This document shows, piece after piece, positions 3,924 to 24,624 of a DNA stretch of 30,780 bases (position 1 is the stretch's first letter; every line of letters begins with the position of its first letter). The notes below the pieces were generated by a model. The model did not search any database. It was given only the letters and a program-made list of their open reading frames with translations, and was not told the origin of the DNA. The translations under genes were made by a program, and so were the position numbers. Origin of the DNA: Piedraia hortae CBS 480.64 (taxonomy: Eukaryota); contig MU005996.1 of assembly GCA_010093745.1 (NCBI GenBank), positions 124,001-154,780 of the forward strand, written 5' to 3'.

Positions 3924-5445
3924 TTAGTCAACTTCCTCTACAGTCGGGCCATCATCACCACCGGCACCACCAGCACCACCAGCACCGCCGGGCATGCCAC
4001 CCATTCCGCCAGGCATACCACCTGCTCCGGCACCGCCCTCACCTTGGTAGAACTTCATCATGATGGGGTTGGCCACACTCTCCAGCTCCTTTTGTTGACT
4101 TTCGTACTCTTCCTTGTCTGCCTGCTGGTTGTCATCGATCCAACTGACCATCTTGTCAATCTCAGACTTGAGCTTCTCCTTGTCCTCTGATGAAAGCTTC
4201 TCGTCGACCTTGGAATCGCTAAGGGTGTTCTTGAGAGAGTAGGCATAAGACTCGAGGCTGTTCTTGGCTTGGATGCGCGCAGCCTCAGCCTCATCCTCTG
4301 CCTTGTACTTCTCAGCCTCCGCAAGCATGCGCTCGATATCGTCCTTGGACAGACGTCCCTTGTCGTTTGTGATAGTGATCTTGTTCGTTTTGCCAGTTCC
4401 CTTCTCCACCGCCGACACGTTCATGATGCCGTTGGCATCGACATCGAATGTAACTTCGATCTGGGGAACGCCACGAGGAGCCGGCGGAATACCAGTCAAT
4501 TCAAACTTGCCTAGCAAGTTATTGTCTCGCGTCTTGGTACGCTCTCCCTCGTACACCTGTATAAGCACACCAGGCTGGTTGTCGGCGAAGGTTGAGAACG
4601 TCTCAGACTTCTTAGTTGGAATGGTCGTGTTGCGCTTGATCAGAGGTGTCATGACACCGCCGGCAGTCTCGATACCGACCGACAGAGGCGCAACATCCAA
4701 AAGGAGGAGCTCATTGGTCGACTTGTTGGATTTGTCGCCTGAGAGAATGGCCGCCTGGACAGCGGCGCCGTAGGCCACAGCCTCGTCAGGGTTGATGGAC
4801 TTGTTGGGCTCCTTGCCACTAAATTCCTCGGAAACCAACTTTTGGATCTTGGGGATACGAGTGGAACCACCGACAAGGACGATTTCGTTCACCGACCCCT
4901 TGTCCATCTTGGCCTCTCTCAGGACCGTTTTGACAGGTTCCATGGTAGAGCGGAAAAGGTCACCGCAGAGTTCCTCGAAGCGCGCCCGAGTGATCGAAGT
5001 GTAGTAGTCAATTCCCTCATATAGCGAGTCGATCTCAATCGACGTCTGCGCAGAAGAAGACAGTGTGCGCTTGGCACGCTCACAGGCCGTCCGCAAACGA
5101 CGGAGAGCGCGGGCATTGGTGGTCAAGTCCTTCTTATACTTCCTCTTGAAGTCTGCGGTGAAGTGCTGCACGAGGCGGTTGTCGAAATCCTCACCACCAA
5201 GATGCGTGTCACCAGCTGTCGACTTGACCTCAAAGATTCCATCTTCAATAGACAGTAGACTGACATCAAAAGTTCTGCGAGGAATTAGCATCTTGTGTCA
5301 GTTTGAATGGGACCACACTTACCCTCCTCCCAAATCAAAGATGAGCACGTTGCGCTCGCCTTCCGTCTTCTTGTCGAGGCCATAGGCAATGGCAGCGGCC
5401 GTGGGCTCGTTGATAATACGGAGAACGTTGAGGCCGGCAATGAGA

Positions 5446-5495
<50 letters not shown>

Positions 5496-5924
5496 TGTGA
5501 TGACAGCGTTGTTAACGGTACCTCCAAGGTAAGATTCAGCCGTCTCCCGCATCTTTGTGAGGACCATTGACGAGATTTCCTCGGGCGTAAAAGTCTTGGT
5601 CTCACCCTTGAATTCCACCTGGATGACGGGCTTTGATGCCCTGTCGATGACCTTGAAGGGGAAGTGCTTCATGTCGGCCTGCACCTCAGGATCGTTGAAC
5701 TTGCGACCGATGAGACGCTTGGCATCAAAGACGGTGTTGGTGGGGTTCATGGCCACCTGGTTCTTGGCCGCGTCACCGATGAGACGCTCAGTGTCGGTAA
5801 AGGCGACAAACGAGGGCGTTGTGCGATTGCCCTGATCATTGGCAATGATTTCGATGCGATCATCCCGGAAGACACCGACACAAGAGTACGTCGTGCCGAG
5901 ATCGATACCAATCGCTGGAGCCAT
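3924..5924 (-). CDS. hsp70: Cytosolic heat shock protein 70 (SSA-type), ~650 aa, 2 exons
   Basis: Exon 1 5924..5323, intron 5322..5275 (GTAAGT...GCTAAT...CGCAG), exon 2 5274..3924. Splicing restores IFDLGGGTFDVS. Also [39 protein letters not shown], a GGMP linker and C-terminal GPTVEEVD. Confidence 0.99.
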
Positions 5925-8791: not shown

Positions 8792-9087
8792 TGTGTAGCG
8801 GTTTGTTGCTGAGCAAAAGGGGTGCGGACGATTTTTGAGCGATCAAACAGCGCCTCATCAAGGAAACGACTCCCACGGAATCTTCCGTTTGGTTACCAAC
8901 TGCCATGTTTGGCGCAGCTTTTACAAGCCTCATGACTGGTGACAGCCTGCCAAATTGTGCCACAGTGGCTGCAGCTTCTAGAAACGTTTCCATCCCAACA
9001 TATGTAGCAGCTAGGCCGTCTTGTGAAAATTCACATGCGGAATGGCTCCGCTGGCACTCCATGATCGAGTTTGCCATGGACATTGCC

Positions 9088-10152
9088 ATGGCTGCTCCCC
9101 GTCTGCTGTTCCTGTGGCCGATGCTATGGAACCCCGAGTCGCGTGCTCTGGTGACAAGGGCAGCAGTCGGTCGACGGACGCTGCACTGCAGCCATCGGTC
9201 TCAGCAGCGCATGTCAGTGTCCCAACGATACGGATCGGCCAACGAACCACCTCCTCATCTCGGCGGCAAGAGTAAGAGCAGGTCCAAGGCCGATAATGCG
9301 AAACGAAAACCGCCGAAGGACGAGAGTGAATCGGCAGTCGACGATGCGACAAAGCAGAGCGGAATGACGGTAGAGTCGCTGCTTGACAGCGTACCTTCTG
9401 AACCACCAGAAGCAACAGACGAGCCCCGGCCATCCACAGACAGTACCAAAATCCCCCATCTCGAGCCCGGCCGCTACGTGCACCACTTCGACTCCTACGG
9501 CCTCGTGCAACGACTAGCGGAAGCAGGCTGGAGCCGCGAACGGGCGGTAGCGATGATGAAGTCCATGCGCGCGATGCTTGCCGAGAACATGGACCTCGCA
9601 ACAGCAGCTCTCATCTCCAAAAGCAACGTCGAAAACGAATCCTATCTCTTCCGCGCAGCCTGCGCCGAGCTGCGCACGGAGGTGACAAACCGTCGCAAAG
9701 CCGAGCAAGAAAAGATGCGCACCGAACGCAACCAACTCCAACACGAAGTCGACATCCTCAGCCAGCAACTAGGCCAATCCTCCGCTGCGCTCAAAGACGA
9801 ACTAGCCGCGATGTTCAACGAGCGCAAAATGGAACTCCGAAACGAACAGCGAACCATGGAAAGCCGTATCCAACAGCTTAATTACAAAATTACGGTCGCG
9901 TTGCAGGCTGATGCGCGATCGGAAATTGAGGGGCTTAGATGGGTTCTCACTCGTAGGGTTATCATGGCGCTGAGTATTGTTGTTGTTATGGTTGTGGGGA
10001 GTCTCAAGTTGTATTCAAATTCTTTGCATGAGAAGGATGTGCAAGGGAGGAGTGTGAAGCCTGTGGTTGAGAAGGCGGTCGAGAAACCTCCTGATGGGCG
10101 CCCGGTGCGGGATATTGTCGTGCCGGAGGCGGAGTTATTGACAGCCGGGTAG
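9088..10152 (+). CDS. Mitochondrial DUF1640 coiled-coil protein (CCDC90/MCUR1/Fmp32-Put7 family)
   Basis: Likely start MAAPRLLFLWP at 9088 with an Arg-rich presequence-like N-terminus, HHFDSYGLVQRL head motif, ENESYLFRAACAELRTE, long coiled coil, and RSEIEGLRW followed by a C-terminal TM helix. The ORF is open from 8905. Confidence 0.85.
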   Translation: MAAPRLLFLWPMLWNPESRALVTRAAVGRRTLHCSHRSQQRMSVSQRYGSANEPPPHLGGKSKSRSKADNAKRKPPKDESESAVDDATKQSGMTVESLLDSVPSEPPEATDEPRPSTDSTKIPHLEPGRYVHHFDSYGLVQRLAEAGWSRERAVAMMKSMRAMLAENMDLATAALISKSNVENESYLFRAACAELRTEVTNRRKAEQEKMRTERNQLQHEVDILSQQLGQSSAALKDELAAMFNERKMELRNEQRTMESRIQQLNYKITVALQADARSEIEGLRWVLTRRVIMALSIVVVMVVGSLKLYSNSLHEKDVQGRSVKPVVEKAVEKPPDGRPVRDIVVPEAELLTAG

Positions 10153-10871
10153 GGAGGTATGCTGGTTATGTTTGGGCGACGGCAGCGCTGATATAAACTG
10201 ATCCGCTTCGGTAATGACAGTGTTCGTTCTTATACTTAATGCTGCGTAGGCAGAGAATGAGGGCGGCCTTGCGGGATCGTCCCGGTAGATTCTGAGCTCT
10301 CAAAACAAGTCTTCATGAAATTCTCAATCACCAGTTATATCCATGTGATATATATATACCCCTGTGCCGGGCACTGTGGTTCTCCAACGACCCCCACCAG
10401 GTTGAAATGTAATGTGTATGTGTGAAAGACGTAAGGGAAACTGTCAGAATTCAGCCAGTCTCACAAAGGATATTTCTCCCGCCAGTAACAGAACGCAAAG
10501 CATCCTATTTGCTCTTTGCAGCAACAATGAAGCCTCATACATCGAAATTTCCTTTGGTGGGGAGGAGAAAGTTTGCCAAGATCTTACCCCTTTTCCAATA
10601 TCTCCCACAGAACAAGGTTCAGGTAGTAAAGGGGTCATCGCCCCACAGCGAACTGGGAAACTCCGGTAAAGCCTGGGCGGGAACATTCAACCACTGTTGT
10701 GTATACACTCTGTAGATATCTTTCGCATACCTTGTATTCCTGCAAGCGCCATCTTGGGGGTACCCTCGTCCATCTCGTCTTCAATTGTCGCAGGTTCCAC
10801 ACATTCCTTCTTAATCTCTTTCCCAGCATTTGTCCATCCAAAATGCTTCCCCAACTTCCCCCAACAGGATT

Positions 10872-13800
10872 CTACCCAAACCGTCCCTCCCTCAAAGGAC
10901 TAACCTCCATCTTCCTCTGCCTAAGCCCCTTCCTCCACCACTTGTCCCCACGCGGTTCCATCTCAAACGCAGCTTCCACATCCCCCCTCCCCCTGCTGCT
11001 GACCCTCCTGACCATCCACCGCGGCACAAAACGCGCACAAACCCCATCGGGAATGAGCCTAATCCCCACCCCTACAGGCAGAACCAATACCCCCAGCAAA
11101 ATAACAATAACCCACTCCCCAGCCGTGAGGGAACGATACCCAACCCCCTCCGTTCTCTTTCCACGCGAGAAAATCCCATATCTCGTGAAAAAAAGTGTGC
11201 AGAGGAGGTAGAGGAACCTCCACCCCTTGCGCATCCCCTGGAAAATGTTGAGTTTATTGTCCACCCGGCGACAGTTTAGTGAGCTGAACATTTGCATAAA
11301 CAGCATTGTCGCGAAGACGAAGGTGTCCGTGTTGTAAACTTCCTCGTAGTCGTAGTTGTAGGTGTTAGAGTTGACTTTGCGTTGGATGGATTTGTTGAAA
11401 GCGTAGAGGACAAGGATGGCGGTGAGCTGGTAGATTGTTTGACCGATGATCATCTTCCACATTGCGATTTTGTTGAGGGTGAAGTTTATGGGGGAGAGAG
11501 GTGGTTCTTTGCCTAGCGCTTGGGCCACGATTGCGCCGACGCCTAGTGTGAGCCAGTAGACGTGGAAGATTGTGAGAAGGCATGAGTTATTTCCATTTGC
11601 GACTGATGTGACGAAGATGACTGTTGCTGTAATGATGGTGTTTGGGATTTGGAATTGGAGAATTTTCGGGGCTGCTTCGCGGAGAGATCGGTAGGAGGTG
11701 AAGGTTCGGGAGATGTAGCTGAATGAGTCGAGTCTCATTTCGAAATCGGCGGCTTCTTTGACGATTTCGCTGGCCCAGATCGGCGCATAGCCCACGTCAG
11801 CAGATTTTACGGCGATGGCGTCGTCAGCATCACTACCGGTTATGGCCACCGTCTCGCCTAGTTCTTTGAGGCGTTCTACGATGACGTGCTTGTCCTTAGG
11901 TCGACATTCGGCTAGCACTTGCAGGGTTGGCAAAACTGTAAGCTGGTCTGGACGACTGAGTTGATAAAAGTCTGACCCCTTCATGGCCTTGCCGTCAGTG
12001 TAAATGCCACATTCTTTCGCAACGGCTTTGGCTGTGTGAATATTGTCCCCGGTCACCATGCGCACGGATAGGTCCAGTTTCTTGCAGTCCTTGACTCCGG
12101 TTACAGAACCGCCTCGCACGGGGTTGAGTATTCCCATCACAGCTAAGAAGGTCAGTCCCCCCGTGACTATCTCCTCTCCGGGCCAGGTCTCAAAGTCGCG
12201 AAAGGCAAAGGAAATGGTTTTCAGAGTGGAATCGCCATAGCCAGCAATCCTGTCTTGCAACGACTTCCTGTCGTCTGCCGTGAGGTCAATGGGGTTGATC
12301 CCCACTGTGGGATTCACCGTCGAGGAACACATGGCTAGGATGATGTCACTTGCTCCCTTGACCAAAAGACGATATCCATGACCACCCTTGTGCTTGATGA
12401 TTGTGCTCATAAACTTGTCCTTTGGGTTGAAACGGTTCACCTGCAGCACTCGCACATCCCGTCCTGAGTCGATGCTTTTCACCCCAAGACGTGATTGTGC
12501 AAATTGCAGCAGTGGCACCTCAATCCGGAGCCCATTTGAGGCTGTCCTTATCTTTTGGGTCGGCTCAACGGTAGAATTAACGACGATGCTGTCTCGCCAC
12601 AGGGCAAGGACACTCTGGGCCAACGTGCTAACTAGCCCAGGTATCTTTGTCCCGTCAAACTCGGCACCGCTGTCCTTGAACAAGCCAGCAGTCCTAATGC
12701 AGCCTGTCACGACAGACATTTGCTCCTTTGTGAGAATGCCAGTCTTTCCCGTACATACACTTGTAATGGTGGCAATGGTTTCCCGCGTGCTGGGCAGCTC
12801 GCCAGCTCCATAATGAATAATCGGTTTATACCAGCTCCGATTTCTCACCGTGCCAAGAGCACTATTCGTGGCATTGAGCACTATCCACAAGTAAGGATCT
12901 GGTATGGCGGCGGCCAGCAATATGGCAGCTGAATGGAGTGTTTGATATATCACGAACTTAGAATGTCTGGAACGAACCGCAAACTTGACGAGCAAGGTAA
13001 TCAACAGCAGCAAAGCTACGGCGATTATGACTCGGGTATTGAGCAATGAAGCCCTCTTGATCCGCTCAACCAAAGGCACAGGTGGCCTGTCTCTTCGTCG
13101 ACGAGGGTTTTTGCGAGAAGCATTGGTACGAACGCCAACAGCAGTAACGAGCATGTATCCGAAGCCGTCAGTGACCTTTGACCCAGAAAACAAGAAAGGA
13201 TCCCTTAGGTTTGAAGTCTCAACCGCAGGCGTCTTTGCAACGAGACCCCATTGGCCTATCGCTTCGTATTCGTCGCAGACGACACCAGAGCCGCTGATAT
13301 AGATCCCATCGACGGGAAGTACATCACCACGTCCCACAGCCATAACATCTCCCACCAGAGCATCATTGATGTCAATTGGCTGCAGTCTACCTGCCCGAAC
13401 AACGCGGGCCTCCTTCTGAACTGGCACCGGAAGCTTGTAGATGCGGCGCCAGATGTAGACCGACTCGAACAAGGCAATGAGAAACATGAATACCAAGACG
13501 AAATTGACTGGGGCCCAAATTGCATCCTCTAAGTCGAGCTCATACGACAAGCTCTTCGCGACCGTAAACCATGCTGCAGTGGCGACAAGAATGACAACAA
13601 AGGCGATGCGGTACCAATTCAGAGAAGCCAGCCAAAAGCAGTAGAGCCACTGCCTCCACCTGAAACCCTTCCTCTTGTTGCTTCCGAAGACGCGCTTCCG
13701 AGCGCTGTTGACGCTTGTATCTAGCCCATGCTTCCGACTTGTCTTCAACCCCTTCTCCAGACCGTAGAGGCCGCCAAGATTTTTAAAGGCGTCAAGATCT

Positions 13801-14159
13801 TTATTTGGGGACATCAATCGCGTAAGTTGGACCGGGGCAAAGCCGAATGGTTTGAATTTCTTGGGGGCAGGGAGCGACTCGTAATCTTGTCCATTCTGCT
13901 CGTGGACGCCATATATCTGCGAAGTCGACGTGTTCCGCAAGTCGGATATGGCGCTGGATATGGAATTGATAGACGATGTTCGGTCTGACGAGTGAGCCGT
14001 GGCAGGCGAGAGGTGTGAAGGATCATTGGGAAGGTCGTTCAGAGGAGATAGCAAAGGACGTGTGATTCCCAGATGGGGACTCTGCGAATCGCCATTGTCA
14101 CGTATCTGATACGGGTTCTGATTTGCACTGGGCAACGGTCTTGTCGGGATGCCGTCCAT
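10872..14159 (-). CDS. P2B (PMC1/PMCA-like) Ca2+-ATPase homolog with degenerate catalytic motifs
   Basis: Uninterrupted ORF, first in-frame ATG at 14159 (~1095 aa). PMC-type features: LGGLYGLEKGLKT, RKRVFGSN, GDVLPVDG, DPFLFSGSKVTDG.G.MLVTAVG, KGASDIIL, MVTGDNIHTAKAVAKECGI, LQFQ, MWKMIIGQTIYQL and NCRRVDNKLNIF. Catalytic motifs are altered (see findings). Confidence 0.92.
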   Translation of the reverse strand: MDGIPTRPLPSANQNPYQIRDNGDSQSPHLGITRPLLSPLNDLPNDPSHLSPATAHSSDRTSSINSISSAISDLRNTSTSQIYGVHEQNGQDYESLPAPKKFKPFGFAPVQLTRLMSPNKDLDAFKNLGGLYGLEKGLKTSRKHGLDTSVNSARKRVFGSNKRKGFRWRQWLYCFWLASLNWYRIAFVVILVATAAWFTVAKSLSYELDLEDAIWAPVNFVLVFMFLIALFESVYIWRRIYKLPVPVQKEARVVRAGRLQPIDINDALVGDVMAVGRGDVLPVDGIYISGSGVVCDEYEAIGQWGLVAKTPAVETSNLRDPFLFSGSKVTDGFGYMLVTAVGVRTNASRKNPRRRRDRPPVPLVERIKRASLLNTRVIIAVALLLLITLLVKFAVRSRHSKFVIYQTLHSAAILLAAAIPDPYLWIVLNATNSALGTVRNRSWYKPIIHYGAGELPSTRETIATITSVCTGKTGILTKEQMSVVTGCIRTAGLFKDSGAEFDGTKIPGLVSTLAQSVLALWRDSIVVNSTVEPTQKIRTASNGLRIEVPLLQFAQSRLGVKSIDSGRDVRVLQVNRFNPKDKFMSTIIKHKGGHGYRLLVKGASDIILAMCSSTVNPTVGINPIDLTADDRKSLQDRIAGYGDSTLKTISFAFRDFETWPGEEIVTGGLTFLAVMGILNPVRGGSVTGVKDCKKLDLSVRMVTGDNIHTAKAVAKECGIYTDGKAMKGSDFYQLSRPDQLTVLPTLQVLAECRPKDKHVIVERLKELGETVAITGSDADDAIAVKSADVGYAPIWASEIVKEAADFEMRLDSFSYISRTFTSYRSLREAAPKILQFQIPNTIITATVIFVTSVANGNNSCLLTIFHVYWLTLGVGAIVAQALGKEPPLSPINFTLNKIAMWKMIIGQTIYQLTAILVLYAFNKSIQRKVNSNTYNYDYEEVYNTDTFVFATMLFMQMFSSLNCRRVDNKLNIFQGMRKGWRFLYLLCTLFFTRYGIFSRGKRTEGVGYRSLTAGEWVIVILLGVLVLPVGVGIRLIPDGVCARFVPRWMVRRVSSRGRGDVEAAFEMEPRGDKWWRKGLRQRKMEVSPLREGRFG

Positions 14160-14613
14160 TTGCGCCTGCAACGGATCGCTGAGACATGTTGCTAGCTATA
14201 AGTAGATGAGGGCCATCCAAGCCCCCTGGGGCAGACAAAAGAAAGGTGCATGCAGAAGGATTCATACTGTCCAATAGAAATATGCAAGAGGGGAAGTAAA
14301 AGGGCCATAAAATCGCACAAGGCTGACAGCCTGGTTTACATTAGCAGCATGACACCTGCACGAACGCACTAAGGCACTCGTGCAAGGTCGATGCCATGAT
14401 TAGGGCTACAGGGAGGCTGTGTAGGATGCAAGAGAGCCTATAGACAACAGGGTTAGTGGTTGTGAACTGAGAGGCTGGAGGTTGATGGGCTGATTTGAAG
14501 GCGGGAAATGCCGACCGCATCTATTACATCCACATCATGGGTGACACCTTCCACATGAACACCACTTCCTTAGACCCAAAATGTAGAACTCTTCCACACA
14601 TGCCCACTGAACC

Positions 14614-22917: not shown

Positions 22918-24330
22918 GTATGCTTCGGCCGACCCAGTTACAGTCTCTATGTGACTACGGTCAGTAATGCTAATATCTGGGGCCTTTCAGGAAAAACTAC
23001 ACCCTTTAAAGGATCCTTTTGCCACGGGTCCAAGAGCATCATCTGGTTTGCTGCTCTCTCGTCTTGGCCGTGTGGCCGCTATGGTTCGAAGTAGCCTCCA
23101 GCGCCGCGACACCTACAAAATCGCTTGTGTCACCAAGGGCACAGACCAGAACCTGCTAACACTCGATGTTAGCATTCGCTGGAACAGCACCTATGACTTG
23201 CTGAAGCGGGTGTTGGAAGAGAGGGAGGTTCTGGCAGCCATGCTCCGGCACCTGCGGCTCGAGGGCCACGAATCCAGCGACGAGGACTCGGCCAAGGTGG
23301 CCTCTGTCGTGACAGCTCTCCACCCATTTGACGTCGCCACCTCCGTTTCTTTCTGCGTCCAAGTATGCCACCTCGTCGCTCGTCCTCAACGCTTTCCATG
23401 GGACAGACAATCTCGTGTCCAAGCAAAAGGCCGCGAAGGCGGACCGGGATCTTCGGCGGTGCTTCAGCGCTATGCTGACCAAGCTGGACGAGTACAGCGC
23501 CAACACATCGTCCAAGATGTCGTTATTCTTGGCAATGATGCTGGATCCGATGTTCTGGTTCCGCAAAAATCGCATTGGCAACTGGGAAGTCGCCGCCTCG
23601 GAGGTACGGGACTGATTGAAACAGAAGTTGGAATCCACCAATTATACTCCGTCTATAATAGCGAAACGACAAACGATGCGACAGCTACGACCACGGCCAC
23701 CATCGCCACGGCCACCGACAACACCGGCCACGGCACGCCGACGTCCACACCCCAGCCGCAGCAGGAGCGGCGGAGCGGCGGATTCCGAGGGACGCCTCGT
23801 CCGCCTCGCCGGCACACCGGACGCACATAGGCATATCCTGCTCGGCAAGATGCCGGCCAACTGCACGCCTCAGTTCCCGTTTGGCCGGAGCAGTACCTTT
23901 TCGACACGGGAATACATCTCGTCCATCAGCAACCGTCGGGTTTACTTTAAGGAATCTTAATCTTCATCGCTAGATGTCAATACGCACTAGAACGTAATGG
24001 TAAGAAAGGAGGAACCCTCAGAGCTAGTCTCTGAGATCATCGGCTTTGAGGGGACCGGTAGCAGCATGTTCGAGGAAGAATCGCGGAAGCACAAGAATTT
24101 CCCGTCTGTTTTTTTCGACACGGACCCGGTCAAGTGGTGGAGGGACACTGAGGCTTGACTGTTCCTGCTCCTTGCCGCCATCGCGCGAGATGACCTGGCG
24201 ATTCCGGCAACCAGTACGTCTTGCGAGGGGGCTTTCTCATCCGGCAGGCTGGTAGTGCCATATACCAGGAACAGGCTGTCCGCTCAACGACTCGGGTATT
24301 CTTATGACTGTGAAAAGCTGAATCAAGGCA
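22918..24330 (+). mobile_element. Degenerate hAT-superfamily transposase
   Basis: LDVSIRWNSTYDLLKR (~23160-23210), L.PF..AT, a frameshift ~23345 into LSASKYATSS, AMMLDP, a stop at 23613-23615, and a C-terminal dimerisation domain DPVKWWRDTEA*LF..LAAIARDDLAIPATSTSCEGAFSSGRLVVPYTRNRLS (stop 24156-24158). Possible intron 22918..22990 (GTATGC...GCTAAT...TTTCAG). No TIRs found. Confidence 0.88.
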
Positions 24331-24624
24331 AAGCTTGTGGAATTTCAATCAGGTGGCTGGGCATTGCTGAACGAACCATCTTGCAAGAACGAGATCATAA
24401 TTATCCAGGTACATCCATGCAAAGGGACTGTGACAAGACGATGACACTGATTGTGTTCACCGAGTTAACTTGATATATACATAAGTAGAATATTATTAAA
24501 CTCACACCTTCTCTAGGTTTTCTAGAGTAGTTGCCTTGATTCTCATCCATTGATCCGAGCCACCCAGTCACCAAATAGTGCCCATTTCAACACTAATAAA
24601 TAAACACAGCAAAACCACTTCGAT

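Follow-up and report, generated by a model that had tools for sequence, protein, structure and literature searches.

The window analysed here, 30,780 nucleotides of contig MU005996.1 from Piedraia hortae CBS 480.64 (assembly GCA_010093745.1, positions 124,001 to 154,780 of the forward strand), carries on its minus strand a complete open reading frame (ORF) of 1095 codons plus stop at positions 10872..14159 of the window, to which all coordinates given below refer. The encoded protein, designated P0001, is a homologue of P2B (PMCA/Pmc1-type) Ca2+-ATPases with dead catalytic motifs. In the standard code the frame is stop-free throughout; when the bases of the same interval were shuffled 500 times, the longest stop-free run was 236 codons and the mean was 122. 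Public protein collections contain the gene only in part, as P0122, a model of 439 amino acids that corresponds to residues 481-919 of P0001 (11403..12719). This model starts at an internal methionine and stops at Tyr919 although the frame runs on without a stop. The complete sequence of 1095 amino acids is absent from the protein collection that we searched, and the full-length ORF is publicly unannotated.

Family membership was assessed by sequence and by fold. Four Pfam families, E1-E2_ATPase, Cation_ATPase, Hydrolase and Cation_ATPase_C, match P0001 above their curated cut-offs. A sequence search of the PDB retrieved plant ACA8 (E value 3.1e-74) and animal PMCA1 (3.5e-72) as top matches, with ACA8 and PMCA1/2 covering a range from 1e-69 to 3e-74, while pumps outside the P2B group scored far more weakly (SPCA at about 1e-34, SERCA at about 1e-30). 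An AlphaFold2 model computed from an alignment of 55 sequences reached a mean predicted local distance difference test score (pLDDT) of 80 and a predicted template modelling score (pTM) of 0.77, low confidence being confined to residues 1-100, residues 448-453 and roughly the 40 C-terminal residues. With Foldseek, the best matches of this model were mouse PMCA structures, at template modelling scores (TM-scores) normalised to the target of up to 0.78, and the closest resemblance was to E1-type states (0.74-0.78). Animal PMCA and plant ACA8 structures (9gsf, 9gsi, 6a69, 8qmp) are thus the best matches in both sequence and fold, though identity in the fold alignment amounts to only about 24-25% and P0001 lacks their catalytic aspartate and Ca2+ ligands; nor was a calmodulin-binding autoinhibitory region noticed in P0001, though no search aimed at one was made. 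The model predicts the architecture of these pumps for P0001, that is cytoplasmic A, N and P domains on a membrane domain of ten helices. The sequence-only reading of this locus had described a full-length open P2B frame, and the Pfam, PDB and fold matches agree with it. P0001 descends from P2B pumps and not from the P2A, P2C or P3 groups.

Three stretches of the protein stand out in the comparison with canonical pumps. The Ser/Pro-rich N-terminal tail (residues 1-100; 13860..14159) is predicted to be disordered, with pLDDT values below 50, and aligns only loosely to the canonical N-terminal tail. Between M4 and the P domain lies an insertion specific to the lineage (approximately residues 443-458; 12786..12833), which coincides with a gap of nine residues in all canonical rows and falls below a pLDDT of 50 at residues 448-453. 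The support helices M7-M10 (11040..11504) form the best-retained part.

It is the catalytic motifs that set P0001 apart. Their columns were fixed by alignment to nine canonical fungal P2B pumps and 26 further proteins. In the phosphorylation loop, which reads C-T-G-K-T-G-I-L-T (residues 469-477; 12729..12755), the aspartate is replaced by Gly471 whereas K472, T473 and G474 are kept. The Gly471 codon, GGA at 12749-12747 within S-V-C-T-G-K-T-G-I-L-T, is two base changes away from any aspartate codon. The dephosphorylation motif TGES of the A domain has become IGQW (residues 301-304, E303Q; 13248..13259), the ion-site motif PEGL in M4 has become PDPY (residues 420-423; 12891..12902) and DPxR in the hinge has become NPVR (residues 679-682, D679N; 12114..12125). 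The Mg2+/phosphate motif TGDGTND of the P domain reads TGSDADD (residues 774-780; 11820..11840), with D776S and N779D and with D780 kept, and the Ca2+-ligand helix M6 carries YWLTLGVG instead of LWVNLIMD (residues 868-875; 11535..11558), implying N871T and D875G. Other motifs have survived. KGAS in the N domain (residues 601-604; 12348..12359), TGDN in the P domain (residues 703-706; 12042..12053), followed by a conserved TAKAVAKECGI, and PKDK with the conserved Lys757 (residues 754-757; 11889..11900) are all present, as are the stretches LQFQI, MWKMIIGQ.IYQ and FNPKDK. In the N-domain pocket both FNPKDK and K601 are kept, and the residue aligned with Arg647 is lysine. The sequence-only reading had listed the same replacements and, as retained, KGAS, TGDN with the stretch after it, PKDK and the C-terminal membrane motifs. 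Inspection of the DNA bears out the two-base distance of codon 471 from aspartate, the alignment columns and coordinates of IGQW, PDPY, NPVR and TGSDADD agree, and the M6 motif, previously located at approximately 11560-11536, lies exactly at 11558-11535.

The aspartate of DKTGT is the defining feature of P-type ATPases, and the loss of this residue, the TGES glutamate, the GDGxND aspartate and the M4/M6 ligands rules out both phosphoenzyme cycling and Ca2+ occlusion. Given these motif losses, P0001 is predicted neither to form a phosphoenzyme nor to carry out ATP-driven Ca2+ transport. It is a P2B descendant that fails four defining features of the group and is therefore not filed here as a functional member. 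Among 80 metagenome loci for fungal pumps, DKTGT is present in all 69 that cover the site, a figure to be read in the light of the retrieval of these loci via other conserved motifs, which biases the set towards canonical pumps. One metagenome locus, L027, encodes an otherwise canonical fungal pump with an in-frame stop within TGES (T*ES) in the tblastn alignment, which may be a sequencing error or may mark a true pseudogene.

The closest known proteins are canonical fungal P2B pumps of the Pmc1, NCA-2/NCA-3 and PmcA-C type, and among these the pumps of about 1400 amino acids from Dothideomycetes such as Meristemomyces frigidus, Recurvomyces mirabilis and Zymoseptoria tritici. P0001 is collinear with them over about 950 residues and shares their A/N/P and ten-helix architecture and their Pfam domains. 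The best matches (Meristemomyces, Recurvomyces, Friedmanniomyces, Cercospora and Zymoseptoria) show 34% identity. Across the canonical relatives the value lies between 31 and 36%, while these are 55-85% identical among themselves. P0001 differs from the fungal Pmc1/NCA pumps in that the phosphorylation, dephosphorylation and Ca2+-site motifs are all replaced. An exhaustive HMMER search of 1.84 billion representatives yielded 18,847 relatives, none of which exceeds 36% identity apart from the 439-residue model of P0001 itself; when shorter proteins were searched, the next best match after that model reached 38%. Within a total of about 15 billion public proteins there is none above approximately 40% identity except this same model, a scan of metagenomes found no relatives, and a search of the ESM Atlas returned only generic Ca2+-ATPase clusters. 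An orthologue that shares the exchange of aspartate for glycine, which the sequence-only reading had suggested looking for in related species, was accordingly not found in public proteins or in the metagenome scan. The adjoining housekeeping gene, which encodes a CCDC90-like protein, puts this isolation into perspective: its best relatives (Teratosphaeria, Meristemomyces, Baudoinia) likewise reach just 48-55% identity. The collections thus hold no close sequenced relative of the organism and, since a housekeeping neighbour also lacks close matches, the isolation of P0001 is weakly informative.

Because P0001 has no known orthologues, selection was tested on the sequence itself. A first test concerned the frame, which neutral drift to the divergence observed would almost never have left intact: in a substitution-only simulation (2000 runs per divergence) it was still open in 10 runs at a divergence of 5% (K=0.05) and in none at 20% (K=0.2), and P0001 shares no more than 31-36% identity with its canonical relatives. 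Retention was scored over 415 columns without variation among 11 near canonical pumps. Of the 124 columns that do not vary among 15 more distant pumps either, P0001 keeps 71, and of the 86 that are conserved in the near clade only it keeps 27 (Fisher p 2.5e-4). Retention is, moreover, strikingly uneven along the protein. The A, N and P domains keep about 60% each (27/45, 28/47 and 56/97, respectively) and M7-M10 keep 71% (34/48), while M1-M2, M3-M4 and M5-M6 keep 16-32% each. In total, the M1-M6 transport core retains 28 of 120 columns (23%) versus 170 of 283 (60%) elsewhere (p 8e-12). Such unevenness speaks against neutral decay, which would treat the domains alike. The replacements themselves are conservative, with a mean BLOSUM62 score of -0.31 as compared to -0.87 for permutations that preserve composition (0 of 5000 as high) and to -0.72 to -0.77 in simulations in which the codons of a canonical gene evolved neutrally to the same retention (0 of 200 reach -0.31). 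Where P0001 aligns with the hydrophobic peaks of the canonical protein, the segments of M1-M7 and M10 have remained hydrophobic; that of M9 is less so (0.65), and M8 is without a peak in both proteins. After the loss of its asparagine and aspartate, M6 has a mean hydropathy of 1.87 versus 1.51 in the canonical pump. G+C contents at the three codon positions (GC1/GC2/GC3) are 0.53/0.43/0.60 along the whole ORF and resemble those of the neighbouring genes, in which GC3 is 0.52-0.70, the intergenic G+C content being 0.46-0.51. Together, these observations make it a well supported conclusion that selection kept P0001 as a folded membrane protein of ten helices through most of its divergence.

A copy mutated by repeat-induced point mutation (RIP) was considered and rejected, as the RIP indices (TpA/ApT 0.59 and (CpA+TpG)/(ApC+GpT) 1.26) are like those of neighbouring genes. 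More generally, a processed or RIP-mutated pseudogene does not agree with a sequence that has no stop, no frameshift and an intact codon-position structure.

We consider it probable, with moderate confidence, that P0001 is a selected pseudo-pump that is kept as a non-pumping membrane protein. It would be a lineage-specific and extremely diverged descendant of a canonical Pezizomycotina P2B (Pmc1/NCA-like) Ca2+-ATPase. The P-type cycle would have been lost together with the aspartyl-phosphate acceptor, the dephosphorylation glutamate, the Mg2+/phosphate-coordinating GDGxND and the M4/M6 Ca2+ site, while the cytoplasmic headpiece and M7-M10 may serve as a conserved scaffold. The phenylalanine and lysine of FNPKDK, KGAS, TGDN and the lysine of PKDK, which we take from the SERCA literature to be ATP-binding residues, are all kept, and the N domain would thus still bind nucleotide. 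For the remodelled M1-M6 core, the end of ion occlusion could have opened the way to another task, e.g. the binding of a partner or ligand in the membrane. As a working mechanism we propose a nucleotide-binding but non-hydrolysing scaffold or regulator that would reside in the Ca2+-homeostasis membranes of its ancestor. A protein of this kind would be most economical because the pocket of the N domain has been kept, as has much of the P domain, while the ion core has been rebuilt. Among the roles put forward in the sequence-only reading, nucleotide binding alone thereby gains some support, via the kept pocket residues. That earlier interpretation is supported in part: its core, a protein that no longer pumps and owes its open frame to selection instead of decaying neutrally, holds.

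Several points weigh against a selected pseudo-pump. With no known orthologue there is no ratio of nonsynonymous to synonymous substitution rates (dN/dS) and no proof of present-day selection, and all our selection tests measure past constraint. The comparison of deep with near retention is partly confounded by the unclear exact branching point of P0001. The regulatory C-terminal tail of about 250 residues that the closest canonical pumps possess is absent, and no remnant of it is detectable after the stop codon (best E value 0.62). The public annotation consists of the piece of 439 amino acids only, so that the frame as a whole was not recognised by a gene finder. Nucleotide binding is deduced from kept motif residues only, and the extreme end branch of P0001 in the phylogenetic tree (3.14 changes per site, see below) is compatible with strongly relaxed constraint.

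Some of these same features would be expected of a young pseudogene, that is of a gene which long served a non-catalytic or weakly constrained role, is now silent and was released so recently that its frame has not yet been hit. We regard this explanation as unlikely, albeit as the most serious competitor. P0001 is a singleton in the proteins and metagenomes searched, its public model is partial, its branch is the longest in both of our trees and its C-terminal tail is lost. Furthermore, in the simulation of neutral drift the frame was still open in 701 of 2000 runs, i.e. in a third, at a divergence of about 1% (K=0.01). Against this stand the gene-like codon-position composition along the whole ORF and the fact that P0001 is free of stops and frameshifts, whereas a transposase remnant of the hAT type 9 kb away, an example of a decayed gene from the same window, is split over frames. 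The site is surrounded by housekeeping genes (CCDC90-like, CRT10-like, RPC5, RF-1 and Med6) and is not part of a decaying region rich in repeats. In addition, one would have to assume that silencing set in very recently, after all signs of constraint had arisen.

It is less probable still, and in our view rather improbable, that P0001 transports by a mechanism other than that of P-type pumps, be it as an ATP-independent leak or carrier through M1-M6 or as a pump with another acceptor residue. The M1-M6 region, although the most changed part (28/120 kept), is still hydrophobic and helical and could form a new pathway. The Na+,K+-ATPase can turn into a channel with palytoxin, and the palytoxin-Na+,K+-ATPase structure 9vj0 is among the fold matches of P0001. 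However, no acidic residue takes the place of the aspartate in C-T-G-K-T-G-I-L-T, and the conversion of the M6 ligands into threonine and glycine along with the increased hydrophobicity of this helix is not suggestive of an ion path. That an artefact of assembly or sequencing, or a chimeric contig, mimics a diverged gene here is hardly credible, since all sampled 31-mers of positions 10600-14400 occur in two sequencing data sets for the same organism from different studies (one of which may be the source of the assembly), hundreds of in-frame substitutions over 3.3 kb do not resemble local errors and the aspartate-to-glycine exchange needs two base changes.

The alignment and P2B tree that the sequence-only reading had called for place P0001 within the fungal P2B pumps. 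In a site-heterogeneous tree calculated with IQ-TREE (LG+C20+F+G4 by posterior mean site frequencies (PMSF), 45 rows, 17 motif-dead proteins) it falls within the clade of canonical long-form Pezizomycotina pumps, the clade of the Dothideomycete proteins mentioned above, with its exact position there being unresolved. Its end branch of 3.14 changes per site compares with 0.05-0.27 for the named canonical rows of the clade and 0.36 for one unnamed representative.

P0001 is not the only fungal P2B protein with dead motifs. A motif scan of the retrieved homologues revealed many others without DKTG. Two multi-species motif-dead clades occur in other ascomycetes, each with a starred support of 100 in the PMSF tree. 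One is a Sordariomycete clade with proteins from Lasiosphaeria ovina (KAK3361473.1), Podospora aff. communis (KAK4446947.1), Fusarium mundagurra (KAF5724929.1) and Immersiella caudata (KAK0620694.1), and the other includes Sporormia fimetaria KAF2747792.1. Singletons are found in Cadophora, Berkeleyomyces and the basidiomycete Cyclocybe. The two clades show that P2B copies with dead motifs are able to persist in other ascomycetes. Just like P0001, the ascomycete proteins are full-length, have lost DKTG and usually also PEGL and GDGxND, have long branches and carry the wrong label of calcium ATPases in databases. They differ in that several keep the M6 aspartate that P0001 has lost, and their identity to P0001 is 26-33%, which is below the identity of P0001 to canonical pumps.

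A common origin of P0001 with these clades was considered and appears less probable than a separate one. In a FastTree phylogeny P0001 did group with ten other dead rows (98, starred), but the PMSF tree separates it from them, and there the 17 dead proteins require eight origins by parsimony, at least five of which are forced by starred branches; two of the origins are the multi-species clades. The share of identical derived residues points the same way. Between P0001 and other dead lineages it amounts to 14-18% of the jointly changed columns, which is at background level, given that demonstrably separate dead lineages share 17-24% and true dead sisters 34-48%. In our reading the FastTree grouping is an effect of long-branch attraction, P0001 forming the longest branch of either tree, and P0001 probably represents an independent origin of the dead state.

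Two of the motif-dead proteins from the Sordariomycete species, P0136 of Fusarium mundagurra and P0164 of Immersiella caudata, feature an N-terminal extension of about 450 residues with a shared zinc-metalloprotease-like motif of the HELGHVLGLRH type. The extensions match reprolysin-family Pfam models with E values of 5e-4 and 1e-3, respectively, which fall short of the cut-offs. In these two proteins the dead pump may anchor another domain in the membrane.

Among described proteins, the alveolate P4-ATPase-guanylate cyclases (P4GC) come closest to a eukaryotic P-type scaffold that is kept despite degenerate motifs: as far as the portions of the source available to us go, their flippase module is retained although the DKTGT aspartate and the A-domain glutamate are altered in Cryptosporidium and in P4GC-beta (PMC13466520). 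The module is of the P4 (lipid flippase) subfamily, is always fused to a cyclase, from which the known function comes, and is conserved across whole phyla; P0001, in contrast, is a stand-alone P2B copy known from a single genome. Our full-text literature searches found no description of dead P2B pumps in fungi. In those parts of a recent review on open questions about P-type ATPases that were accessible to our term search, none of the terms searched for inactive or degenerate members occurs, and the sole instance of 'pseudo' belongs to a species name (Palmgren, 2023; PMC10654040).

P0001 appears to exemplify something that recurs in fungi and has gone unreported. More far-reaching, and tentative enough that we would not yet put it at even chances, is the proposal that in filamentous ascomycetes surplus P2B pumps have repeatedly become membrane proteins devoid of catalysis, with P0001 as one more independent and the most extreme case. 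They would form an undescribed class that keeps the nucleotide-binding headpiece, reuses the membrane core and is hidden under the name 'calcium-transporting ATPase'. Automated annotation names any protein with a P-type fold a pump, and counts of calcium pumps in fungal genomes, as well as inferences on calcium homeostasis derived from them, would be inflated by such copies. If P0001 is indeed a selected dead eukaryotic P2B homologue, the pump scaffold has a second use that does not involve transport, and the protein would be a naturally 'locked' variant with which the role of the headpiece in the absence of turnover could be studied.

The genomic neighbourhood may contribute to answering the question of how the copy arose. 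The gene is flanked by the CCDC90-like gene on one side and by CRT10-like, RPC5 and RF-1 genes on the other, with Med6 also nearby. At an E value of 1e-5, a search with 11 neighbour proteins from the window gave no match in the 80 canonical pump loci, of which only about 30 have long flanks and all stem from distant fungi. The different surroundings hint at a relocated duplicate and not at a degenerated positional orthologue. Like most of the canonical genes, P0001 is intronless. A retrocopy origin was also contemplated; it is not inferable, because 9 of the 12 canonical loci examined gave a single uninterrupted match as well (the other three came in two pieces) and the absence of introns is thus uninformative in this respect.

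The decayed transposase that the sequence-only reading had noticed nearby was recovered on the plus strand as an ORF of 291 amino acids without a Pfam hit (22955-23827) and a separate ORF with the C-terminal dimerisation fragment of the hAT type (24159-24470; PF05699, E value 8.3e-6). The CCDC90-like gene (PF07798, E value 3.5e-45) is located at 8905-10152 on the plus strand in a tail-to-tail arrangement with the dead pump. In animals, the CCDC90 family has a member that regulates the mitochondrial calcium uniporter, and the presence of a calcium-related gene next to the dead pump may be a coincidence. Within the otherwise housekeeping neighbourhood, a gene for an NTPase of the NLR (NOD-like receptor) type belonging to the STAND (signal transduction ATPases with numerous domains) class (NPHP3_N, E value 7.9e-31; NACHT) occupies positions 1-2001 on the minus strand and runs off the start of the window; such NTPases make up a fast-evolving class of fungal genes for non-self recognition. 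An Hsp70 gene of the SSA type resides at 3924-5924, likewise on the minus strand, as two ORFs that meet at GGG/TFDV, consistent with the presence of one short intron.

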